DNA of 17,956 nt from a virus (Duplodnaviria; Heunggongvirae; Uroviricota; Caudoviricetes), in IMG/VR virus record IMGVR_UViG_2734482540_000003. One strand, given 5' to 3'. Positions 1,961 to 17,699 of this stretch are shown here, piece by piece (the stretch's first letter is position 1; the number at the start of each line of letters is the position of its first letter). The notes under the pieces were generated by a model. That model was not told the DNA's origin, made no database searches, and saw only the letters and a list, made by a program, of their open reading frames with translations. Both the position numbers and the translations under genes were made by a program.

Positions 1961-2457
1961 TTGTCGGTATACCTCTCTCGTTTGCTCAGTTGTTCAGGAA
2001 TATGGTGCAGCAGCTCGCCGTCACCACAGTAAATGGCGGCATGATTCGGCACCGATGAACCAAAACAGCACAGCAGCACATCGCCCGGCTGCGCCGCTGA
2101 CAACGGCACCTGATACAGCCCTGTGGCCTCCAGATTATCCAGATAGAGATTCTGACCGTGACGCCACCAGTCATCCTCACGATGAAAATCCGGCATCTCA
2201 ATCCCCGCCAGATGGTAAGCATCCCGGAACAGCGTGTAACAGTCCGTCACCCCGTGCTCAAAGCGCCGCCCGGTAAGATGTGGCACACAGCGGAACTTGT
2301 GAATCGCCCCCCGGCAGACCAGCCACCACGGCAAATCACTCTGCACCTGCAGCCGCCGGTCGGCCTCACTCAGCCAGGGCAGACCACCGGGGTGGCTGTG
2401 GACCAGTGCCACAATCTCACCCTGCATCTCTGCCTGCAGCCAGTCTTCCGGCGACAT
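1858..2457 (-). CDS. K: Tail tip assembly protein K (JAB/MPN-type metallopeptidase motif plus NlpC/P60-like Cys/His region)
   Basis: Last 199 codons of track ORF 1858..2895 (MSPEDWLQAEMQGEIVALVHSHPGGLPWLSEADRRLQ...HIPEQLSKRERYTDKWQ...) correspond to lambda gpK. ATG at 2455-2457 with GGAGG about 11 nt upstream. JAMM-like E..HxH..S..D motif is visible. The frame remains open upstream to the N-run (see findings). Confidence 0.88.
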   Translation of the reverse strand: MSPEDWLQAEMQGEIVALVHSHPGGLPWLSEADRRLQVQSDLPWWLVCRGAIHKFRCVPHLTGRRFEHGVTDCYTLFRDAYHLAGIEMPDFHREDDWWRHGQNLYLDNLEATGLYQVPLSAAQPGDVLLCCFGSSVPNHAAIYCGDGELLHHIPEQLSKRERYTDKWQRRTHSLWRHRAWHASAFTGICNDLAAASTFV

Positions 2458-2789
2458 ACGGAAATACGCCTCCGGCTCACCGGAGATATTCACGCAGGGG
2501 AAATATCTTTCCCCCTCCGGCGTTCTTACCACGAAGCCGNNNNNNNNNNNNNNNNNNNNNNNNNNNNNNNNNNNNNNNNNNNNNNNNNNNNNNNNNNNNN
2601 NNNNNNNNNNNNNNNNNNNNNNNNNNNNNNNNNNNNNNNNNNNNNNNNNNNNNNNNNNNNNNNNNNNNNNNNNNNNNNNNNNNNNNNNNNNNNNNNNNNN
2701 NNNNNNNNNNNNNNNNNNNNNNNNNNNNNNNNNNNNNNNNNNNNNNNNNNNNNNNNNNNNNNNNNNNNNNNNNNNNNNNNNNNNNNNNN

Positions 2790-3311
2790 GGTGCAGGTGT
2801 TGGCCAGCATGATACGTCCCGGAAAAACAGCGCCATCTGTTTCCGTCGGCGTGGACAGTACAAAAGAGGCACTCACCGCGCTCAGTTCGCTGCACTGCTC
2901 AATGCGCCAGCGGCTGATCACCTCCTGCTCCGGATCGGCGTCACTGTTTCCGTTGACGAAGTTCACCGCATCCAGAAAACGGGCGTAAACCTTACGCCGG
3001 ACCACCGTTCCGCCGACCAGACTCTGTAGATCTTCCGCCATCCCGGTGACCATACCGTACAGGTTAGAAACCATCAGCGTGGGGCGCGTACTGGTGCCTT
3101 TGCCATTCAGTTCAAAACCACTCCCCTGAATGGGATACGGCTGATACTGTCGCCCCTGCCAGGTGACCGGCTCACCTTTTTCGTTCTGCTCATTACAGAA
3201 AAAATAACGTTCTCCACCGACCTCTGTCAGATCGATTTCCCAGAGCACCACGCTGGCCGACTGCTCCGCACGGGTGCATTCATTCAGTGTTTCCTGCCGG
3301 ATATCCTGCAT
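2790..3311 (-). CDS. L: Tail tip protein L (visible N-terminal about 174 codons; 3' end lies in the N-masked stretch)
   Basis: Translation from ATG at 3311 (MQDIRQETLNECTRAEQSASVVLWEIDLTEVGGERYFFCNEQNEKGEPVTWQGRQYQPYPIQGSGFELNGKG...) matches lambda gpL. Lambda L is 232 aa, so the stop is expected near 2613 inside the N-run (extrapolated, not observed). Start overlaps the M stop by 1 nt. Confidence 0.9.
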
Positions 3312-3640
3312 CAGTTCACCACCTGTTCAAACTCTGCGCTGAACTCAACACGCAGCATACTGACCCGCGACGACCATTTTGCGCAGGTCACCTTTATCTG
3401 CCGCCACTCATAAGGCGGCGTCCACAGAAAGGCTTTCCAGCCCCCGTGCTCTTCCAGAAACGACTCCAGTACCATGGCCTCCTCACGGGGGACAGAAAGC
3501 GTCACGCTGTACGTTTTCAGGTTGGCATTCAGCCCGGCAGGCGCTCGCTGGGAATAGCCATCACCAAAGCGCACCTTTCTTACAGAAGGGGCCGAAGCCA
3601 CATCCATACCGGGTTTCACTTTCCAGCGGAAGGTTTTCAT
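3311..3640 (-). CDS. M: Tail tip assembly protein M
   Basis: 109-aa ORF (MKTFRWKVKPGMDVASAPSVRKVRFGDGYSQRAPAGLNANLKTYSVTLSVPREEAMVLESFLEEHGGWKAFLW...) matches lambda gpM. ATGA-type overlap with the H stop. Confidence 0.93.
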   Translation of the reverse strand: MKTFRWKVKPGMDVASAPSVRKVRFGDGYSQRAPAGLNANLKTYSVTLSVPREEAMVLESFLEEHGGWKAFLWTPPYEWRQIKVTCAKWSSRVSMLRVEFSAEFEQVVN

Positions 3641-6198
3641 CGTCCACCTCCGGAGAACAGGCCACCATCACGCATCTGTGTCTGAATTTCATCACGGGCA
3701 CCCTTGCGGGCCATGTCATACACGGCCTTCATCATCTGTGGACCTGGCAGACCATTCGTACCGTCGTTCTGAATCACCACGTGATTGTTCTGATTAAAAT
3801 TAATGCCTTCAGCCCGCCGCATCTGCGCCGGACTTCCGGCACCGCCCACATAACCACCTTCCGCATAGCCGCGCATCAGCCGGTAGAGATTCCCCACGCC
3901 AATCCGGCTGGTTGCCTCCTTCGTGAAGACAAATTCACCACGGTGAACAATCCCCGCTGGCTCATATTTGCCGCCGGTTCCCGTAAATCCCCCGGTTGCA
4001 AAATGGAATTTCACCGCAGCGGCCTGAATGGCTGTACCACCTGACGCGGATGCGCCGCCACCAACAGCCCCGCCAATGGCGCTGCCGATACTCCCGACAA
4101 TCCCCACCATTGCCTGCTTAAGCAGAATTTCTGTCATCATGGACAGCACGGAGCGGGTGAAGCTGCGCCAGTTCTGTTCACTGCCGGTCAGCATCGCCGC
4201 CATATTCTGTGCAATACCATCAAAGGTCTGCGTGGCTGCACTTTTAACCTGTGACATACTGTCCGTGGCGCTCTCTTCCCACTCACTCCAGCCGGACTTC
4301 AGGCCTGCCATCCAGCTCCCGCGAAGCTGGTCTTCAGCCGCCCAGGTCTTTTTCTGCTCTGACATGACGTTATTCAGCGCCAGAGGATTATCGCCATACT
4401 GTTCCTTCAGGCGCTGTTCCGTGGCTTCCCGCGCTGCCTGCCGGTCAGTCAGCCCCCGGTTTTTCGCATCAATGGCTGCCCGTTTTGCCCGTTGCTGCTG
4501 TGCGAATTTATCCGCCTGCTGCGCCAGCGCATTCAGGTGCTCCTGATACGTAACCTTGTCACCAAGTGCAGCCAGCTGGCGTTTGTACTCCAGCGTCTCG
4601 TCTTTATGCGCCAGCAGGGATTTCTCCTGTGCGGACAGCTGGCGACGTTGTGCCGCCTCCTCCAGTACCGCGAACTGACTTTCTGCCTTCCACAAATCCC
4701 GGCGCTGCTGGCTGATTTTCTCATTCGCTCCGGCATGCTTCTCCAGCGTCCGGAGTTCTGCCTGAAGCGTCAGCAGGGCCGCATGAGCACTGTCTTCCTG
4801 ACGATCGCCCGCATACACCTTCACGCCGGACTGTTTCGGCTTTTTCAGCGTCGCTTCATAATCCTTTTTCGCCGCCGCCATCAGCGTGTTGTAATCTGCC
4901 TGCAGGATTTTTCCGTCTTTCAGTGCCTTGTTCAGTTCTTCCTGACGGGCGGTATATTTCTCCAGCGGCGTCTGCAGCCGTTCGTAAGCCTTCTGCGCCT
5001 CTTCGGTATATTTCAGCCGTGACGCTTCGGTATCGCTCTGCTGCTGCGCATTTTTGTCCTGTTGACGCTGTTGATCTACCCTCTTTTGGGCTGCATCCCG
5101 CTCCAGGCGTTTTTTTTCACGATCATCCCAGTAACGCGCCCGTGCTTCATCGTTAACGAAATAATCATCCTTGCGCAGATTCCAGATGTCGTCTGCTTTC
5201 TTAAACGCAGCCTCTGCCTTAATCAGCATCTCCTGCGCGGTATCAGGACGACCAATATCCAGCACCGCATCCCACATGGATTTGAATGCACGTGCAGTCC
5301 TGTCTGCCCAGGTCTCCAGCGTGCCCATGTTCTCTTTCAGGCGGCGGGTCTGGTCATCAAACCCTTTCGTTGCGGCCTCGTTCGCCGCCTGCAATGCCCC
5401 GGCTTCATCGCCGGAACGCTGCAACTGAGCAACATACGCAATCTGCTCCGCCGTCACGTTATGGAACTGGCGTGCCATCGCCGTCAGCCCCGACGTCGGG
5501 TCTGTGGTCAGCTTCCCGAAGGCTTCAGCGACCTTGTCCACCTCCACGCCGGATGCATAGGAGAAACGCGCCACACTCTGGCTGATGGACGCAATCTGAG
5601 CCTCACCGCTTACCCCCGCCTTAACCAGTGCGCTGAGTGACTCGCTGGTCTGGTTAAACGTCAGCCCTGCCGCCTGCCCGGCTCTGGACAGGACCAGCAT
5701 ACGATCTGCCGTCAGTCCCGCCTGATTACCGGAAAGGACCAGCGTTTTGTTGAAATCGGACAGGGTTGAGTTGCCCTGATACCAGGCATACGCCAGCGCA
5801 CCGGTCGCCACCGCCAGCGAGGTGGCCCCCACCATCGGCAGGGTGATCGCGCCGGCAAGCCCCCTGAACATGGGGATCATCCCGCCGAAGGAGTCCTTAA
5901 CCTGACCACCCTGTTGCAGCAGGATCAGCCAGGGATTCTGCCCCCCTGCAAGCTGCGTGGCCACGTCGGTGAACTGTGCAGGCAGCATACGCATGGCGGC
6001 TTTATACTGCCCGACGGAAATCCCCGCTTTCTGTGCAGCCAGCGCCTGTCGGCTCAGCGACTGTTCAACGACTGCCGCTGTTTTTTTCGCATCACTTTCC
6101 GTACCGGAAAAATGACGCCTGACTCTGGCCATCTGCTCGTCAAATCTGGCCGCATCCAGACTCAAATCAACGACCAGATCGCCTACCGGTTCAGCCAT
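3637..6198 (-). CDS. H: Tail tape measure protein H
   Basis: 853-aa ORF (MAEPVGDLVVDLSLDAARFDEQMARVRRHFSGTESDAKKTAAVVEQSL...RDGGLFSGGGR), same length as lambda gpH and recognisable throughout. Coiled-coil-rich middle and glycine-rich C-terminal region. Start overlaps the end of the T frame by 8 nt. Confidence 0.95.
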   Translation of the reverse strand: MAEPVGDLVVDLSLDAARFDEQMARVRRHFSGTESDAKKTAAVVEQSLSRQALAAQKAGISVGQYKAAMRMLPAQFTDVATQLAGGQNPWLILLQQGGQVKDSFGGMIPMFRGLAGAITLPMVGATSLAVATGALAYAWYQGNSTLSDFNKTLVLSGNQAGLTADRMLVLSRAGQAAGLTFNQTSESLSALVKAGVSGEAQIASISQSVARFSYASGVEVDKVAEAFGKLTTDPTSGLTAMARQFHNVTAEQIAYVAQLQRSGDEAGALQAANEAATKGFDDQTRRLKENMGTLETWADRTARAFKSMWDAVLDIGRPDTAQEMLIKAEAAFKKADDIWNLRKDDYFVNDEARARYWDDREKKRLERDAAQKRVDQQRQQDKNAQQQSDTEASRLKYTEEAQKAYERLQTPLEKYTARQEELNKALKDGKILQADYNTLMAAAKKDYEATLKKPKQSGVKVYAGDRQEDSAHAALLTLQAELRTLEKHAGANEKISQQRRDLWKAESQFAVLEEAAQRRQLSAQEKSLLAHKDETLEYKRQLAALGDKVTYQEHLNALAQQADKFAQQQRAKRAAIDAKNRGLTDRQAAREATEQRLKEQYGDNPLALNNVMSEQKKTWAAEDQLRGSWMAGLKSGWSEWEESATDSMSQVKSAATQTFDGIAQNMAAMLTGSEQNWRSFTRSVLSMMTEILLKQAMVGIVGSIGSAIGGAVGGGASASGGTAIQAAAVKFHFATGGFTGTGGKYEPAGIVHRGEFVFTKEATSRIGVGNLYRLMRGYAEGGYVGGAGSPAQMRRAEGINFNQNNHVVIQNDGTNGLPGPQMMKAVYDMARKGARDEIQTQMRDGGLFSGGGR

Positions 6199-7029
6199 AC
6201 CGGACTCCTCCTGCGATCCCTTCTGATACTGTCATCAGCATTACGTCATCCTCCGTCATGTCCGCCACATCCGGGGAAGCGGGGATAACTTCATTCCCGT
6301 CCGGGCCAAAGCGGACACCTCCGGCAAGCCCTGCCGCTTTCTGCATCAGCACATCATCTTCAGGCTCTTCGTCAGCCTCGCGCCGGTTCAGCAGACTGAA
6401 ATCCAGCGGATGCATCTCCGGATCGCTGAAAAACAGGCTGAGCACGGTGTACGTCAGCCCGGAAAAGTGCATATCCAGCAGAACATCATGAAAATAATGG
6501 GTACTGTAAAAGCGGTGCCAGTCGGCATACTCCGTGGATGACATCCCGGCAAGCATGGCGCGCCAGTCGGGTCGCCCCATCTCACGCGCCAGTTTCAGGG
6601 CAAAACTCAGCTCACCGTCGAACACTTTCCCGCAGAAACAGGCTCTGCAGGCCCGGCGTCCTCTGCCTGTTCAGGAGCATCATTCACCACAAACTCATAC
6701 ATACCGGACAGCCGGTACACCACGTTTTCAGCATGAGAAATTGCCTCTGTGGGCCAGGTGGTAAGCACTTCCTGCTCAATCTGTTTAACGGCTTCATTCA
6801 TGGACGGCATCTGCGTCTTCTTCGGATGGTTATGCCACAGGGACATCGCAACCACAAAAGCGCCGGTTCTGATGGCGTCTTCCACAGTAAACTTCCGGTT
6901 GCTGTCTGACTCCGCCTGTTCTGCCTGCCGTTTCATCAGGTCGAGATGCTCAATACGCTGCAGGGCTGACAGTTCAGAAAGCGTGACGGTCACACCGTTA
7001 TGTTCAAATGATTCGGTTTTCAGGAACAT
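6191..7029 (-). CDS. T: Tail assembly chaperone G-T fusion, made by programmed -1 ribosomal frameshift from G into the T frame
   Basis: The -1 frame downstream of the G slippery site is open from about 6625 to the stop at 6191 (...FDGELSFALKLAREMGRPDWRAMLAGMSSTEYADWHRFYS...), matching the T part of lambda gpGT. It has no start codon of its own (the first in-frame codon reads GTG), consistent with expression only by frameshifting. Confidence 0.85.
6607..7029 (-). CDS. G: Tail assembly chaperone G
   Basis: 140-aa ORF (MFLKTESFEHNGVTVTLSELSALQRIEHLDLMKRQAEQAESDSNRKFTVEDAIRTGAFVVAMSLWHNHPKK...) matches lambda gpG. Contains the slippery heptamer near its 3' end. Confidence 0.93.
   Translation of the reverse strand: MFLKTESFEHNGVTVTLSELSALQRIEHLDLMKRQAEQAESDSNRKFTVEDAIRTGAFVVAMSLWHNHPKKTQMPSMNEAVKQIEQEVLTTWPTEAISHAENVVYRLSGMYEFVVNDAPEQAEDAGPAEPVSAGKCSTVS
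6625..6631 (-). other. Slippery heptamer G GGA AAG for the G to G-T -1 programmed frameshift
   Basis: Plus strand reads CTTTCCC, i.e. GGGAAAG on the minus strand, positioned as G GGA AAG in the G frame (…A G K C S T V S*). Shifting -1 here reads GGG AAA GTG TTC... = GKVFDGELS, which joins the T frame exactly. Confidence 0.85.
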
Positions 7030-7044
7030 CGCTGACTCTCCGGA

Positions 7045-7785
7045 TTAACTGGCGGTGACGTTGATTTCTGCAACCGCAGCAAACTCACCATTACCAGATA
7101 CGACCGGAATGTTGACCTTGCCTGCAGCAACACCTTTCACGGTGATGGTCATACCACTGACCGACACGGTGGCTTTTGTTTTATCCGCAGACACCGCACG
7201 GAAGCTCTTGTCGGTTGCGCCATCCGGCTGGAATGCCACGGTCAGCGTGGTGCTCTGCCCTTTCACTACGGAAGCACTGGCGGGTGTCACCGTCATGCCG
7301 GTCGTCGCCGTCACCGTGCTGCGATCTTCTGCCATCGACGGACGTCCCACATTGGTGACCTTCACCGTGCGGGTAATCACCTCCTTCGCCGTCACCGCCT
7401 TACCGATACTGCTGACCCAGCCACGGAACACATCGACCGTGCCGTTCGGGAAGCGGATTTTATAGGCACGGGTATCACCTTCATTAAACCACGCCAGCAG
7501 CGCCTGCTGCCCCTGCTCTCCGGGCATCCACGCCAGCGTGAAGCTGGTATCTCCGGCAGATTTCTGCCCCTGCCCGGTCGCAGTCCAGTCTGCATCTTCA
7601 TCATCGAGATAGCTGTCGTCATAGGACTCAGCGGTCAGTTCGCCGGGCGTCAGGTCTTTAACTTTTGCCAGACGCGACCAGTCAACGTCTGAAAGCGGGT
7701 TCGCATAAGGGTCACCGCTCCCCTTATAAACCCACAGGGTGGTCCCGGCACCTTTCACCGGCATTGTAGGATTTGGTACAGGCAT
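7045..7785 (-). CDS. V: Major tail tube protein V (with C-terminal Ig-like domain)
   Basis: Track ORF 7045..7815 contains the lambda gpV sequence starting at its 11th codon ([45 protein letters not shown]...EINVTAS). That gives a 246-aa product from ATG at 7785, 7 nt downstream of the U stop as in lambda. Confidence 0.93.
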
Positions 7786-7792
7786 AGCGTCC

Positions 7793-8034
7793 TCACATTT
7801 CATAGATAATGACATAAGTCAGATCGGCTGAACTCCACAGGCCCGCATCATCGTCGCGCCGGTAGTCATAGCCGCTGGCCACCATACTGGTGATCAAATC
7901 TGACAGTGCCGGGATATCGCTCATCACAGGATAAATCCGGGACTCCATCCACGAATCCAGCTCTGAATCCGGCACCTGAGCAGGCAGGAAAACTTCAATA
8001 TGCAGCTCCGCCTGCCAGGTATCGCTGTCCAGCT
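7793..8034 (-). CDS. U: Tail tube terminator protein U (visible C-terminal about 80 codons; start lies in the N-masked stretch)
   Basis: In-frame translation from the N-run edge to the stop at 7793 reads ...[79 protein letters not shown], the C-terminal two-thirds of lambda gpU (131 aa). The track ORF begins at an internal GTG only because of the mask. Extrapolated start is near 8188. Confidence 0.9.
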
Positions 8035-8298
8035 NNNNNNNNNNNNNNNNNNNNNNNNNNNNNNNNNNNNNNNNNNNNNNNNNNNNNNNNNNNNNNNNNN
8101 NNNNNNNNNNNNNNNNNNNNNNNNNNNNNNNNNNNNNNNNNNNNNNNNNNNNNNNNNNNNNNNNNNNNNNNNNNNNNNNNNNNNNNNNNNNNNNNNNNNN
8201 NNNNNNNNNNNNNNNNNNNNNNNNNNNNNNNNNNNNNNNNNNNNNNNNNNNNNNNNNNNNNNNNNNNNNNNNNNNNNNNNNNNNNNNNNNNNNNNNNN

Positions 8299-8783
8299 AA
8301 CGCCGTGGTCAGCGGCACCGCCATCGGGATTTTCACCACATCAATGGGGTAACGGTTTTTCCCGGCCACACGCTGCATAACATGCCACCGGCCGTTTTTC
8401 AGTTGCTGAATAAACGCGCCGGGAATACGACGGTTACCCACCACAAGCACGCTGCCGCCACCTTTCAGGGATGAACGCTGCCCCTTTTTATGACGCCTGC
8501 GGCGGGACAGGACAACCCGCGCATTACCCAGCTTGATTACGGGCAAATCCCCCCGGTTAACTTTGATTCTGGCCTGCGGATTTTTGACCGTGGCCCTTTT
8601 CAGCCTGGCCCTTTCCTTTACCAGTTTCCGGCGTACCTTTGTCTCACGGGCAACCTGTGACGCAGACTGCGATATCGCGGATGAAGCAACGCGGTTAATG
8701 GCCATTGCGGCGGCACCGGGCACCGCCGTTTTGCTGATACGGCTGAGGTTTTCAACGGCCTGCTCAAGACCTTTTATGGCCAT
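8299..8783 (-). CDS. Z: Tail completion protein Z (visible N-terminal 161 codons; 3' end lies in the N-masked stretch)
   Basis: Track translation MAIKGLEQAVENLSRISKTAVPGAAAMAINRVASSAISQSASQVARETKVRRKLVKERARLKRATVKNPQARIKVNRGDLPVIKLGNARVV... matches lambda gpZ (192 aa). Expected stop is near 8205 inside the N-run (extrapolated). Confidence 0.9.
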
Positions 8784-8794
8784 ACATCCCCCTT

Positions 8795-9148
8795 TCAGCG
8801 GCGACGGTTAACGGCAGGCGGTACGCCCCGTCCAAGCCAGAGATGACAACTTCCGCCATCATCCGGCGAAACCCGATCTACCCAGAAATTTTCCTCACCG
8901 ATGGTCAGCGTGTCTCCACGCCGCAGCTGCCGCACCTCATCAGTCCGGACAAACAGGGACGGGCTGGAGCCTTCAACGCGCACGCCCTGTCCGGCATAGC
9001 TGATATTTTCAGGGTCATCAAAAACACCACGTATCACCGCACCTGACTGCTCACCGGATGTCATGGTGGCTGACGTTCCCATGTACCCGCGTATCGTTTC
9101 ATCGGCGCGGGCAATGGCAGCATCGAACAGGTTATCGAAATCAGCCAC
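8795..9148 (-). CDS. FII: Head-tail joining protein FII
   Basis: 117-aa ORF (MADFDNLFDAAIARADETIRGYMGTSATMTSGEQSGAVIRGVFDDPENISYAGQGVRVEGSSPSLFVRTDEVRQLRRGDTL...) matches lambda gpFII. By my reading the initiator is GTG, preceded by GGGAGG. Lies 11 nt after the FI stop. Confidence 0.93.
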   Translation of the reverse strand: MADFDNLFDAAIARADETIRGYMGTSATMTSGEQSGAVIRGVFDDPENISYAGQGVRVEGSSPSLFVRTDEVRQLRRGDTLTIGEENFWVDRVSPDDGGSCHLWLGRGVPPAVNRRR

Positions 9149-9159
9149 AGCGCCTCCCG

Positions 9160-9498
9160 TTATTGCATTCTGGCCAGGCCGCGCTCTGTCATTTCGGCTG
9201 CCACACCGGCAGAGACACGAAACGCCGTTCCCGGCAGCACAAATGCCACAGGTTTATCCCGCGTGGCGTGAAGTGCATCAGTATGCAGCGTCACCAGTGC
9301 CACGACCGTGACCAGTTCAGCCGTATCCTGAATCACGGTATCCGGCTGCGCTGATACCACCTCATTTTCATGCCCGGTCAGCACATTTTCCCGGCTGAGA
9401 GGGGTGTCCTGACCGGCAGTTTCATCCGTGTCATCAAGCTCTTCTTCCAGCTCTGCCACACGAAGCGCCAGTTCTTCTTTCGTTCCCGTCAAACTGAC
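9160..9498 (-). CDS. FI: DNA-packaging protein FI (visible C-terminal 112 codons; start lies in the N-masked stretch)
   Basis: Visible translation VSLTGTKEELALRVAELEEELDDTDETAGQDTPLSRENVLTGHENEVVSAQPDTVIQDTAELVTVVALVTLHTDALHATRDKPVAFVLPGTAFRVSAGVAAEMTERGLARMQ is the C-terminal part of lambda gpFI (132 aa). Extrapolated start is near 9558. The 510-aa track ORF is an artefact of E and FI being read in one frame across the N-run. Confidence 0.88.
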   Translation of the reverse strand, partial: VSLTGTKEELALRVAELEEELDDTDETAGQDTPLSRENVLTGHENEVVSAQPDTVIQDTAELVTVVALVTLHTDALHATRDKPVAFVLPGTAFRVSAGVAAEMTERGLARMQ

Positions 9499-9786
9499 NN
9501 NNNNNNNNNNNNNNNNNNNNNNNNNNNNNNNNNNNNNNNNNNNNNNNNNNNNNNNNNNNNNNNNNNNNNNNNNNNNNNNNNNNNNNNNNNNNNNNNNNNN
9601 NNNNNNNNNNNNNNNNNNNNNNNNNNNNNNNNNNNNNNNNNNNNNNNNNNNNNNNNNNNNNNNNNNNNNNNNNNNNNNNNNNNNNNNNNNNNNNNNNNNN
9701 NNNNNNNNNNNNNNNNNNNNNNNNNNNNNNNNNNNNNNNNNNNNNNNNNNNNNNNNNNNNNNNNNNNNNNNNNNNNNNNNNNNNNN

Positions 9787-10665
9787 TGCGTCCGCATCCT
9801 GAATGCAGCCATAGGTGCGCAGACCGCGAGCCTGAGTGTTCCCCAGCACCATCGTGTTGTCCGGCAGGAAGTTCTTTTTGACGCCGTTTTCCACGTACTG
9901 TCCGGAATACACGACGATGGCCACATCGCCATACATTCCCTTATAGGACACCGCTTTGCCCAGGTCTTTTACCGCTGTCTCCAGCTCGGAATGAGAGCCG
10001 CGACGGGTATCCAGCTTCTCCTTGACGGCTTTGAAGGAACGGAACAGCGCCCAGCCTTTCGGGTCAAACACGATGATATTCACCACACCGCTGGCGTTCA
10101 GCGCGTAGGCTTCGATATCGTCGGTCGGGTCATACGTGGACTTGTCACGCTTGCTCCACTCCGTGACGCCGGACTGTGTGATGTTGTTCGCCGCACTGCG
10201 GCCCATATCCACCTCAACCGGATCGAAGGCTTCACCGGTCATGGTGTATTTGCCCTTGAGCACGGCAGAAACTGCCTGCATCTCTTCGACCTGAGCAATG
10301 GCCAGCTCTTCGTCACGCATGTTCTGCATGATGATGCGACGGCGGCGGTAAGCCGGGTCCGCCAGATTCTGCGGATCTTCATCCGGCAGGCGACGCAGGG
10401 TCATCTGCGGATTCACCTCATGCTTGGGTTTGACATATCCCGGCGTAAATTCAGAGGTGGAGCCGCCACGGGAACGGATAACCTCACCGGAAACAATCGG
10501 CGAAACGTACAGCGCCATGTTTACCAGTCCCGGAATTTGTGAGAGATAGACTTTCTCCGTAGTGAAGGGATAGCTCTCACGGAAAAAGAGACGCAGAAAC
10601 AGCGGATCAAACTTAAATTTCTGCTCATTTGCCGCCAGCAGCTGGGCGGTTGTGTACATCGACAT
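9787..10665 (-). CDS. E: Major capsid protein E (visible N-terminal 293 codons; 3' end lies in the N-masked stretch)
   Basis: From ATG at 10663-10665: MSMYTTAQLLAANEQKFKFDPLFLRLFFRESYPFTTEKVYLSQIPGLVNMALYVSPIVSGEVIRSRGGSTSEFTPGYVKPKHEVNPQ..., matching lambda gpE (341 aa). Expected stop is near 9640 inside the N-run. The track's upstream extension to 10692 is not the real start. Confidence 0.93.
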
Positions 10666-10720
10666 AAAAAAATCCCGTAAAAAAAGCCACACAGGCGGCC
10701 TTTAGTGATGAAGGGTAAAG

Positions 10721-11053
10721 TTAAACGATGCTGATTGCCGTTCCGGCAAACACGGTCCGTTTTTTCGTCTCGTCGCTGGCAGCCTCCGGCCAGAGCACAT
10801 CCTCATAACGGAACGTGCCGGACTTGTAGAACGTCAGTGTGGTGCTGGTCTGGTCAGCAGCAACCGCAAGAATGCCAACGGCAGCACCGTCGGTGGTGCC
10901 ATCCCACGCAACCAGCTTACGGGTGGAGGTGTCCAGCATCAGCGGGGTCATTGCAGGCGCTTTCGCACTCAATCCGCCGGGCGCGGTTGCGGTATGAGCC
11001 GGGTCACTATTGCCCAGCGGCTGGTAATGGGTAAAGGTTTCTTTGCTCGTCAT
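10721..11053 (-). CDS. D: Capsid decoration protein D
   Basis: Track ORF 10721..11059; lambda gpD (110 aa, [43 protein letters not shown]...AGTAISIV) begins at the second ATG (11053). A 55-nt spacer separates it from E, as in lambda. Confidence 0.93.
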
Positions 11054-11062
11054 AAACATCCC

Positions 11063-11668
11063 TTACACTGGTGTGTTCAGCAAATCGTTAACGGCATCAG
11101 ATGCCGGGTTACCTGCAGCCAGCGGTGCCGGTGCCCCCTGCATCAGACGATCCAGCGCAGTGTCACTGCGCGTCTGTGCACTCTGTGGTGCTGCGGCCAG
11201 AATACGGCGGGCCGTTTCCACGGTCATACCGGGGGTTTCGGCCAGCACGCGTGCCTGTTCTTCGCGTCCGTGAGCCTCCTCACAGTTGAGGATCCCCATA
11301 ATGCGACTGTTTTCTGCCGCAACCGCTGCGGTGATCTGCGCGTTCACGTCCGGCTGCGCCGCGCTGGCGTTCTCGCCCTCCGTCGCTTGCACCACGCCAG
11401 TAACGTCAGCCTGCGAAGCAGTGGCTGAAACAGTTGTTGATTGAGTCTCTTTGGTCATTCGCCCTCCTGAGAGACGGGATTTACGTGCATCCAGTGCATC
11501 ACGCATGACGGTGATCGCATCGGTACTGTTAACAAGTTCATCAGCCAGTCCGGCATCAATGGCCTCCTGACCGCTGTACACTGCAGCCTCGGTATCCAGC
11601 ACAGCCTGCACGGACAGGCCGGTATATGCCGACACCTTCTGTGCAAACATCCGGCGGGTTGCATCCAT
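11063..11668 (-). CDS. nu3: Capsid scaffolding protein Nu3 (internal in-frame initiation within C; shares the C-terminal 201 codons of C)
   Basis: In-frame ATG at 11666-11668 begins MDATRRMFAQKVSAYTGLSVQ..., the position of lambda nu3 within C. No strong Shine-Dalgarno, so the call rests on the known lambda arrangement. Confidence 0.72.
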   Translation of the reverse strand: MDATRRMFAQKVSAYTGLSVQAVLDTEAAVYSGQEAIDAGLADELVNSTDAITVMRDALDARKSRLSGGRMTKETQSTTVSATASQADVTGVVQATEGENASAAQPDVNAQITAAVAAENSRIMGILNCEEAHGREEQARVLAETPGMTVETARRILAAAPQSAQTRSDTALDRLMQGAPAPLAAGNPASDAVNDLLNTPV

Positions 11669-12362
11669 CCGGGACTGCAATGTTTCCCGGACATCATCCG
11701 GTAGATGGCTGTAGGGGTTGCCATCCACCTTATGGCTGCCGCTGTAAATCAGCGTGATTTCCACGCCCTGTTTCTCCAGTGCAGCGCCGTAATTACTGTG
11801 AGCCATCATGACGCCGATGGAGCCTGTCCGGGCGGTCTGCGTGACCAGACGCCGGGAGGCGGCACTGGCAAGCAGCTGACCTGCGCTGCAGTTCATGTCA
11901 TTGGCCAGCGCCCATACCGGCTTTATGTCACGCACACGGGCGATGATGTCAGCGCAGTCAAATGCTCCCGCCACCATTCCGCCCGGTGTGTCCATATCGA
12001 GCAGAATGCCGTCCACCATCGGGTCGCTGGCAGCCTGTTGCAGACGGGCGATAATGCCGTTGTAACCGGTCATCCCCGAGTACGGCTGCAGCGCCCGCGT
12101 CCGGCTGACCAGCGTGCCGGACACCGGCAGCACGGCGATGCCGTTCATTACCTGATAACTGCGGGCCTGTCGTGGTCCGTCATCATCACCGGATAACGCC
12201 AGCGCCGCGGGTGCCTCTCCGGCAGTCAGGCTGTCGCCGGATACTGCATCCGTCAGGCAGCTGATCCCAAGCTGGCCTGCAAGCGCACAAAAGAAAACCC
12301 GCGCATAGGCGGGTTCAAGCATCAGCGGCTCATTAAAAGCCATGCTGGCAATATGCGGGAGA

Positions 12363-12382
<20 letters not shown>
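11063..12382 (-). CDS. C: Capsid assembly protease C (ClpP/S49-like serine protease), 439 aa
   Basis: Track ORF 11063..12517 contains the lambda gpC sequence from residue 46 onward (V/M-TAELRNLPHIASMAFNEPLMLEPAYARVFFCALAGQLGIS...LLNTPV). The initiator at 12380-12382 reads GTG. Overlaps the B stop by about 20 nt. The longer 484-aa frame is not accepted. Confidence 0.9.
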
Positions 12383-16063
<3,681 letters not shown>

Positions 16064-16089
<26 letters not shown>

Positions 16090-16609
16090 TCAGCAACCCC
16101 GGTATCAGTTCATCCAGCGCGGCTGCTTTGTTCATGGCTTTGATGATATCCCGTTTCAGGAAATCAACATGTCGGTTTTCCAGTTCCGGAAAACGCCGCT
16201 GCACCGACAGGGGGATCCCGTCGAGAATACTGGCAATTTCACCTGCGATCCGCGACAGCACGAAAGTACAGAATGCGGTTTCCACCACTTCAGCGGAGTC
16301 TCTGGCATTTTTCAGCTCCTGTGCGTCGGCCTGCGCACGCGTAAGTCGATGGCGTTCGTACTCAATAGTCCCTGGCTGGAGATCTGTCTCGCTGGCCTGC
16401 CGCAGTTCTTCAACTTCCCGGCGCAGCTTTTCGTTCTCAATTTCAGCATCCCTTTCGGCATACCATCTTATAACGGCGGCAGAGTCATAAAGCACCTCAT
16501 TACCCTTGCCACCGCCTCGCAGAACGGGCATTCCCTGTTCCTGCCAGTTCTGAATGGTACGGATACTCGCACCGAAAATGTCAGCCAGCTGCTTTTTGTT
16601 GACTTCCAT
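16064..16609 (-). CDS. nu1: Terminase small subunit Nu1
   Basis: 181-aa ORF MEVNKKQLADIFGASIRTIQNWQEQGMPVLRGGGKGNEVLYDSAAVIRWYAERDAEIENEKLRREVEELRQ... matches lambda gpNu1. ATG at 16607-16609, directly downstream of the cosB-like repeats. Confidence 0.95.
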
Positions 16610-16629
16610 TGTTCATTCCACGGACAAAA

Positions 16630-16750
16630 ACAGAGAAAGGAAACGACAGAGGCCAAAAAGCCCGTTTTCAGCACCTGTCGTTTCCTTTCTTTTCAGGGGG
16701 TGTTTTAAATAAAAACATTAGGTTACGGCGAAGAAGAACGGAAACGCCTT
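16630..16750. promoter_or_regulatory. cosB-like terminase-binding region (R1, R2, R3 repeats flanking an AT-rich IHF-site-like segment)
   Basis: Seen directly: agagaaaggaaacgacag (about 16633-16650) and its near-perfect inverted copy ctgtcgtttcctttct (about 16676-16691), plus a third related copy gaagaagaacggaaacg (about 16729-16745), with an AT-rich tract (ttttaaataaaaacatta) between. This layout matches the R1-R2-I1-R3 organisation of lambda cosB just upstream of Nu1. Confidence 0.65.
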
Positions 16751-16780
16751 AAACCGGAAAATTGTCATAAATAGCGAAAA

Positions 16781-16805
16781 CCCGCGCGCCTTCCGCCCCG
16801 TAACC
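16781..16805. promoter_or_regulatory. cosN-like region (terminase nicking site) with a non-canonical core
   Basis: Flanking sequence (gcgaaaacccgcg ... cgtaacctgtcgg) is what surrounds lambda cosN, but the 12 nt between read CGCCTTCCGCCC rather than the reverse complement of the lambda cohesive end (AGGTCGCCGCCC). Position relative to cosB and Nu1 is as expected. Confidence 0.5.
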
Positions 16806-16834
16806 TGTCGGATCGCCGGAAAGGACCCGCAAAA

Positions 16835-16849
16835 TGATAATAATTATCA
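16835..16849. promoter_or_regulatory. Perfect 7-1-7 inverted repeat TGATAATAATTATCA (Fur-box-like), in the region where cosQ maps
   Basis: Read directly from the sequence; matches the TGATAATnATTATCA Fur-box consensus. Lies about 40 nt from the cosN-like core and about 150 nt upstream of the YlcI-like ORF. Confidence 0.4.
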
Positions 16850-16997
16850 TCTACATGTCACAACGTGCATCTACGCCATCAAACCACGTCAAATAATCAA
16901 TTATGACGCAGGTATCGTATTAATTGATCTGCATCAACTTAACGTAAAAACAACTTCAGACAATACAAATCAGCGACACTGAATACAGGGCAACCTC

Positions 16998-17231
16998 ATG
17001 TCAACGAAGAACAGAACCCGCAGAACAACAACCCGCAACATCCGCTTTCCTAACCAAATGATTGAACAAATTAACATCGCTCTTGTTCAAAAAGGGTCCG
17101 GGAATTTCTCAGCCTGGGTCATTGAAGCCTGCCGCCGGAGACTGTGCTCAGAAAAAAGAGTTTCGCCTGAAGCAAACAAAGAAAAGAGTGACATTACTGA
17201 ATTGCTCAGAAAACAGGTTAGACCAGATTGA
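16998..17231 (+). CDS. Small basic protein, YlcI/DUF3950-like (homolog of the unnamed small ORF next to cos in lambda); function unknown
   Basis: 77-aa ORF MSTKNRTRRTTTRNIRFPNQMIEQINIALVQKGSGNFSAWVIEACRRRL... The N-terminal 50 or so residues match the small lambda right-end ORF and the DLP12 YlcI family as I recall them; the C-terminal tail differs. Basic N-terminus and a ribbon-helix-helix-like core suggest nucleic-acid binding. Weak Shine-Dalgarno. Confidence 0.6.
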   Translation: MSTKNRTRRTTTRNIRFPNQMIEQINIALVQKGSGNFSAWVIEACRRRLCSEKRVSPEANKEKSDITELLRKQVRPD

Positions 17232-17288
17232 AGCAATTTAGATAATCGTGCAGACTACGCCCCCTCATATCACATGGAAGGTACTACA

Positions 17289-17699
17289 ATGGCTCAGGTT
17301 GCCATTTTTAAACAAATATTCGATAAAGTGCGAAATAATTTAAACTATCACTGGTTTTATTCTGAACTAAAACGTCACAATGTCTCACATTACATTTACT
17401 ATTTAGCCACAGAGAATATTCATCTTGTTCTTGAAAACGATAATACGGTTTTAATAAAAGGACAGGGTAAGGTTGTAAATGTAAGATTTTCAAAAAATAA
17501 ATGCCTTATAGAAGCCACCTTAAAAGGATTCAAATCAGGAGAGTTATCATTTTACGAATACAGGAAAAATCTTGCTACAGCAGGGGTTTTCAGATGGATT
17601 ACAAATATCCACGAAAACAAAAGGTATTACTATACCTTTGATAATTCATTACTCTTTACTGAGAACATACAGAACACTACACAAATATTTCCGCACTAA
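17289..17699 (+). CDS. DUF1398-family protein, YbcV-like (homolog of the lambda right-end ORF lambdap78); function unknown
   Basis: Track ORF 17274..17699. The likely start is the second ATG at 17289 ([67 protein letters not shown]...[35 protein letters not shown]), preceded by GGAAGG at a 7-nt spacing. AT-rich codon usage unlike the structural genes. Resembles YbcV/lambdap78 at roughly 75-80% identity by recollection. Confidence 0.75.

Follow-up and report, generated by a model that had tools for sequence, protein, structure and literature searches.

A natural alternative right half of cosN in a probably functional lambda-type cos site of a lambdoid prophage

Differences from lambda at bp 7–12 of cosN are common among lambda-like phages, with N15 and phiD326 departing from lambda at bp 9 and 12 and Gifsy-1 at bp 8, 9, and 11 (Feiss et al. 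2015, PMC4669245). Changes in this right half gave minimal phenotypes and no measurable effect on cos cleavage, and whereas the left-half mutation G2C cuts the yield about 10-fold, the symmetric change C11G is harmless (PMC4669245). The asymmetry is put down to the right half lying close to cosB, where TerS anchors TerL, and neither the lambda- nor the N15-specific terminase discriminates between cosN sites (PMC4669245). Conservation extends to cosQ and to the CG pairs beside the nicks, and a mismatch of two bases between the ends costs about fourfold in yield (PMC4669245), while the spacing from cosN to R3 is important (PMC9026076). The published tolerance data span one to three substitutions. 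Among the natural variants, the N15 end, which we checked, is GGGCGGCGTCCG, and the mEp213/LLS end is GGGCGGCGCGCT (PMC12315714).

The site described here lies in a viral DNA stretch of 17,956 nt (IMGVR_UViG_2734482540_000003; hereafter the window), which gives an 18-kb view of a prophage, three N runs included. Its cosN core, the 12 bp enclosed by the two nicks (16787–16798, minus strand), aligned column for column with the annotated cos site of DE3 and reads CGCCTTCCGCCC, where the lambda equivalent is AGGTCGCCGCCC; in context, the window shows gcgaaaacccgcg-CGCCTTCCGCCC-cgtaacctgtcgg. In lambda orientation, the corresponding cohesive end is GGGCGGAAGGCG (GGGCGG-AAGGCG), which differs at 5 of 12 bases from the canonical GGGCGGCGACCT (GGGCGG-CGACCT) of lambda, 21, phi80, and 434. 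To place these differences, positions 16700–16880 were aligned with five lambda-like phages. DE3, 2H10, Turner, and the Stx1a-converting phage all carried AGGTCGCCGCCC and PhiR70_1 carried AGGTCTCCGCCC, so that among these six sequences CGCCTTCCGCCC occurred in the window only. All changes relative to lambda fell at bp 7, 8, 9, 10, and 12 of the right half (16787–16792, lambda bp 12 to 7; CGCCTT vs AGGTCG), that is, five of its six bases with C11 kept, and the left half (16793–16798, lambda bp 6 to 1; CCGCCC, or GGGCGG in lambda orientation) was identical in every sequence compared. The alignment thereby confirmed a sequence-only reading of this DNA, which had proposed that AGGTCG is replaced by CGCCTT between conserved flanks and next to a conserved CCGCCC half, and the lambda sequence that it had used for comparison was right.

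Over a longer stretch (16620–16990, 371 nt), the window and lambda differed in 23 columns without a single indel, and five of these columns lie in the hexamer 16787–16792. This clustering is beyond chance: five differences within any 6 nt were seen in 27 of 20,000 permutations of the differences. Both the GC content of the core (10 of 12) and its predicted duplex stability match those of lambda. Rotational symmetry of the 16-bp site holds at 8 positions in the window versus 10 in lambda, as the flanking CGs and the pair G2:C11 are kept, G3:C10 and G6:C7 are lost, and C4:G9 is gained. A templated origin of CGCCTT from a copy 38 nt upstream in R3 (..AACGCCTTAAA..) was considered and dropped, since a 6-mer match there is within chance.

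Around the core, the window holds the further parts of a lambda-type cos. The heptamer AGGACCC (GGGTCCT in lambda orientation; 16822–16828, minus strand), which we take to be cosQ, stands at the lambda spacing from cosN; its identity is said to have been worked out by Wieczorek and Feiss in 2001. A CG flanks the bottom-strand nick on the cosB side (16785–16786) and another the top-strand nick on the cosQ side (16799–16800), in line with the reported conservation of these pairs (PMC4669245). By motif position, cosB comprises R3 (16733–16748), a binding site for TerS (Nu1) from which TerL is anchored for the nick close by, according to PMC4669245 and PMC9026076, together with the R2 core (16675–16685) and the R1 core (16639–16649), all on the minus strand. 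The adjacent open reading frames for Nu1 (TerS, 181 aa; 16064–16609, minus strand) and A (TerL, 641 aa; 14164–16089, minus strand) are full length. No indels relative to lambda were found between cosN and Nu1, the distance from cosN to R3 is that of lambda, and gpA differs from that of lambda DE3 at 4 of 641 residues. The earlier description of Nu1, A, and cosB as lambda-type was thus borne out.

We consider it probable (roughly 0.8) that this is a functional lambda-type cos site, in which cosN carries a natural alternative allele of its right half (bp 7–12). Nu1 would bind cosB as in lambda and, with R3 at unchanged spacing, position gpA, which would then introduce the bottom-strand nick between bp 12 and 13 with little dependence on the sequence there. 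The top strand would be cut by a second TerL in the conserved left half (..ACG^GGGCGG), giving a predicted 12-nt 5′ overhang GGGCGGAAGGCG in place of GGGCGGCGACCT in lambda. Because both chromosome ends would stem from identical cosN copies in one concatemer, they would be complementary, and normal cyclisation would be possible. Cleavage at the homologous positions and the viability of this prophage are our inferences, while the sequence, its recurrence, the intact subsites with their spacing, and the unchanged terminase were observed directly. The kind of variation is already well known, which limits its novelty: the window fits the class of right-half variants, with differences at bp 7, 8, 9, 10, and 12 only and the other cos determinants conserved. 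The sequence-only reading had called a changed nicking site unexpected, which was largely wrong given that bp 7–12 vary naturally and that cleavage is insensitive there (PMC4669245). Its surprise arose because it took the whole 12-mer as the recognition sequence, whereas genetics assigns this role to the left half and the nick-flanking bases only.

Compared with the described systems, the window is closest to lambda itself, with which it shares the cos architecture, spacing, left half, CGs, cosQ heptamer, R3/R2/R1, and near-identical Nu1 and A, and from which it departs by AAGGCG instead of CGACCT at bp 7–12 and by a symmetry of 8/16 instead of 10/16. N15 and phiD326 (GGGCGGCGTCCG) are likewise right-half-only variants with a conserved left half and, as in the window, a G at bp 12, and their cosN is cut by lambda TerL as efficiently as lambda's own (PMC4669245). 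In contrast to the window, in which five changes are set in a lambda-type cosB/Nu1/A context, N15 has two changes, its own simple cosB, and a TerL of 64.9% identity (PMC4669245). Gifsy-1 and mEp213/LLS (GGGCGGCGCGCT) share the variation at bp 7–12 (PMC4669245, PMC12315714) but carry other bases, fewer changes, and diverged head or terminase modules. On these comparisons, the window allele appears to be the most divergent natural example found, with five changes versus two to three reported elsewhere, and as a natural test of the model of Feiss and colleagues, in which anchoring by TerS leads to a sequence-insensitive bottom-strand nick, it would be more divergent than any before.

The variant core recurs widely. 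A 34-nt query that seeded only across the variant hexamer was run against 5,426 complete E. coli genomes and matched 85 places in about 80 of them, 70 chromosomal and 15 on plasmids, in addition to two phage records. Many of the plasmid records are about 46 kb long, and one that was inspected is an N15-like phage-plasmid. We read the identical core directly in APEC E14033, strain 582, Z1323CEC0019, ETEC1721, NCCP 15734, PhiR46_1, and YDC107_1, which together display two cosQ-side haplotypes (CGTAACCTGTCGG and CGTAGCCTGCCGG). A 111-nt cos query, run for comparison, hit 6,996 places in 4,158 E. coli genomes, so that the variant makes up roughly 1–2% of the lambda-type cos sites in complete E. 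coli genomes. Cos finders that rely on the canonical 12-mer miss about this share, including an N15-like phage-plasmid lineage. Both cosN alleles also occur inside single genomes, e.g. in strain 582. When the pattern CCCGCGNNNNNNCCGCCCCGTA was instead run over genome contigs, chance matches in high-GC genomes (e.g. Streptomyces) swamped all others among the matches listed. In the accessible literature, which does not include a dedicated survey on cosN variants in nature (Vahanian et al. 2017), a search with the 12-mer in both orientations gave nothing beyond unrelated papers on plants and Streptomyces.

In IMG/VR, variants were collected with a fixed Nu1-side flank (GAAAACCCGCG) and left half plus CGTA, using IUPAC codes that excluded the canonical base, one hexamer position after another. 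This survey yielded 51 contigs with CGCCTT, compared to at least 118 contigs with the lambda-type AGGTCG, the latter drawn with a longer right flank. Fifty of the CGCCTT contigs had enough flank for haplotyping and fell into 22 distinct 30-nt cosQ-side haplotypes and 4 left-flank haplotypes; the range of backgrounds carrying the allele indicates that it is not recent. Ten further contigs carried nine rare alleles, namely AGGTCA in two contigs and AGGTCT, AGGTTG, CGGTCG, CGTCTG, CGTCAG, CGCCTG, AGCCTT, and ACGCTT in one each. AAGGCG/CGCCTT is therefore the second-most-common natural cosN allele in this context. Two of the rare alleles, CGCCTG and AGCCTT, lie a single step away from the window allele, and CAGACG, CAGGCG, and AAGGCG (in lambda orientation) form an observed chain of single steps. 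Bp 11 (window 16788) was non-canonical in one contig only, which makes it the most conserved of the six right-half positions in nature; the laboratory mutation C11G at this position had no effect (PMC4669245). One metagenomic viral contig of 56,122 bp, IMGVR_UViG_3300045988_113976, contains two copies of the variant cos and could represent tandem prophages or more than one genome length.

This recurrence bears directly on whether the sequence is real. An artefact of assembly or circularisation at the genome ends had been raised before, and this or an effect of masking in a draft might be suspected from the three N runs, which mark the window as gapped or masked sequence, and from the error-proneness of some assemblies at genome ends. 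However, the same 12-mer with the same flanks occurs in independent chromosomes that are finished and stem from several countries and hosts, and the window cos lies inside an integrated prophage, away from a contig end. The artefact is thus refuted for practical purposes, with next to no probability left to it, while the proposal of a genuine variant cos, made in the same sequence-only reading, is now backed by about 80 complete genomes, 51 viral contigs, and one isolated phage.

A second proposal from that reading was a packaging-defective cryptic prophage. On this view, decay would have altered cosN so that nicking is abolished or misdirected. In its favour, five of the six bases beside the bottom-strand nick differ from lambda, two symmetric base pairs are lost, and some carriers of the allele are visibly degraded prophages. 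Yet decay would not recreate an identical hexamer in about 80 genomes and 51 contigs with 22 flank haplotypes, nor would it spare every adjacent functional element: the CGs, the left half, cosQ, and R3/R2/R1 with their spacing are all intact. The terminase and all other visible genes are intact as well. In the stretch from J to Nu1, all 20 genes keep the order found in PhiR46_1 and contain no stops or frameshifts outside the N runs (2540–2789, 250 nt; 8035–8298, 264 nt; 9499–9786, 288 nt), each of which replaces about 245–249 nt of real sequence when compared to PhiR46_1. At the protein level, 19 of the 20 structural proteins are 93–100% identical to those of PhiR46_1 and G is 81% identical. 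Together with the experimental tolerance of right-half changes (PMC4669245) and the presence of the allele in a phage recorded as propagated on a foreign host and in complete phage-plasmids, these data make a defective element quite unlikely, and the cos of lambda-type prophages with GGGCGGAAGGCG ends should not be annotated as defective.

Apparent signs of decay in the gene complement, namely a 510-aa E-FI fusion and over-long Z (262 aa) and L (261 aa) reading frames, were rejected as artefacts of the N runs; such N-run reading frames are easily mistaken for pseudogenes or gene fusions. The tail assembly chaperone gene G (6610–7029), 81% identical to its PhiR46_1 counterpart between neighbours at 94–100%, is a local mosaic segment.

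To relate the allele to the terminase, 87 full-length Nu1 and 53 full-length gpA sequences were extracted beside typed cos sites. If the allele marked a distinct packaging specificity, with a co-evolved terminase recognising a different nicking site, the two discrete major alleles with few intermediates would be accounted for. However, no residue was fixed between the allele classes in these 87 Nu1 and 53 gpA sequences, and the strongest association with the allele amounted to a frequency difference of about 0.5. We also looked at gpA R504, N509, and E515, positions that we take to be those of suppressors of cosN mutations (such suppressors at 504, 509, and 515 were reportedly described by Arens and colleagues in 1999), and found no co-variation there. 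The gpA of the window is identical to that of two other variant loci, and it is only 2 residues away from several canonical-cos loci, besides the 4 of 641 that separate it from lambda DE3; residues 504, 509, and 515 do not change in any of these. All 14 variant-linked gpA genes that lay wholly inside the fetched DNA were full length.

The closest complete-genome relative of the window, PSS-07 (99.4% over 3,968 nt), likewise carries the canonical allele. With the lack of cosN specificity of the lambda and N15 terminases (PMC4669245), these comparisons render a co-evolved terminase very unlikely. The occurrence of the canonical allele in PSS-07 shows that the allele has been exchanged between backgrounds that are otherwise near-identical. 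The window and PSS-07 differ at 25 positions, 5 of them from the hexamer. Eleven of the 25 fall within 91 nt (16702–16792), which start in the I1/R3 part of cosB and reach the variant hexamer, and the differences stop at the hexamer, with 16793–16841 identical. Positions 16702–16792 resemble a short tract acquired by recombination, one of its ends falling within the cohesive-end sequence.

Natural sites show two sharp alleles with few intermediates, where a diffuse cloud would be expected if the positions were unconstrained. Within the variant class (50 contigs), cosQ and the surrounding CCGGAAAGGACCC were invariant, whereas the eight bases after CGTA in the cosN-cosQ spacer (window 16799–16821) had a per-site diversity of 0.3–0.5 and formed the 22 haplotypes, so that the variant hexamer is more conserved than the adjacent spacer. 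The bimodal pattern could stem from linkage and the sampling design, or from selection on cohesive-end compatibility. In the latter case, which is compatible with a working variant cos, the alleles would be compatibility groups kept discrete by selection: the terminase would cut both equally, but ends that differ at 5 of 12 bases cannot anneal, and cross-class chromosomes or hybrids would fail to cyclise. At least 118 lambda-type and 51 variant contigs against 10 contigs with nine rare alleles, the invariance of the hexamer beside a diverse spacer, the co-occurrence of both alleles in genomes such as strain 582, and a fourfold yield cost already for a two-base end mismatch (PMC4669245) would all fit. 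On the other hand, the two ends of one phage always match, which requires no selection acting on their sequence; the low diversity of the hexamer may come from linkage to the conserved left-arm flank, which the search pattern held fixed; and a different pattern served to collect the canonical sample, so that the two classes are not strictly comparable. Overall, we regard such compatibility groups as unlikely.

The broader suggestion that natural lambda-type cos sites form two sharply conserved end classes (CGACCT and AAGGCG), and that end identity is under selection, is doubtful at present, although the two-allele pattern hints that cohesive-end identity may be selected in nature. If true, it would stand out because laboratory genetics leaves bp 7–12 free to vary, and the classes may gate cos-mediated joining or hybrid formation among co-resident lambdoid phages, phage-plasmids, and cos-bearing satellites.

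Carriers of the variant allele include integrated lambdoid prophages, some of which look intact over the regions seen and some of which are degraded: in Z1323CEC0019, A abuts a truncated L, and in APEC E14033, an island interrupts gene E. The allele is also present in N15-like elements. PhiR46_1, an N15-like phage, encodes a primase-type replication protein and has a telL site in its annotation, YDC107_1 is assigned to Ravinvirus, and pEC21Z151-46K encodes a protelomerase and a CyRepA1 replication protein. The PhiR46_1 record names a propagation host, ECOR13, that is different from its source. PhiR46_1 is part of the PhiR panel of temperate phages (Brenes & Laub 2025), which was used in plaque assays (PMC13190303), although the accessible text does not mention PhiR46.1 by name. 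Record metadata and panel use together suggest that a phage with the variant cosN, PhiR46_1, is infectious.

PhiR46_1, YDC107_1, and pEC21Z151-46K share with the window the exact cosN allele and a lambda-type cosB, Nu1, and A, but unlike the window they are linear plasmid-prophages (telL, protelomerase, RepA). Their cosQ-side flank is CGTAGCCTGCCGG, a haplotype other than that of the window, in which YnfO/YdfO-type genes come after cos, just as they do in lambdoid prophages integrated into the chromosome. These three E. coli phage-plasmids lack the simple cos and diverged terminase of N15, and their lambda-type cosB/Nu1/A with the head and tail module is about 95–97% identical at the DNA level to the window prophage. 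Evidently, integrative lambdoid phages and telomere phage-plasmids have swapped whole modules comprising the morphogenesis genes and cos.

On the cosQ side of cos, the window encodes a YlcI/YnfO-family gene (DUF3950; 16998–17231) and a YdfO-like DUF1398 gene (17274–17699), an arrangement known from the annotation of Qin-type prophages. In other variant carriers, this position is taken by iss/bor, gnsB/cspI, or KilA-N genes, so that it constitutes a variable cargo site. An island of about 11 kb interrupts the major capsid gene E of the variant-cos lambdoid prophage in APEC E14033 (NZ_CP126948.1, about 2,419–13,686). It carries genes for a tyrosine integrase, a DNA primase, an SSB, an Icd-like protein, a DUF4222 protein, and major capsid and head-decoration proteins of its own, and looks like a satellite-type (PICI-like) element in the capsid gene of a potential helper.
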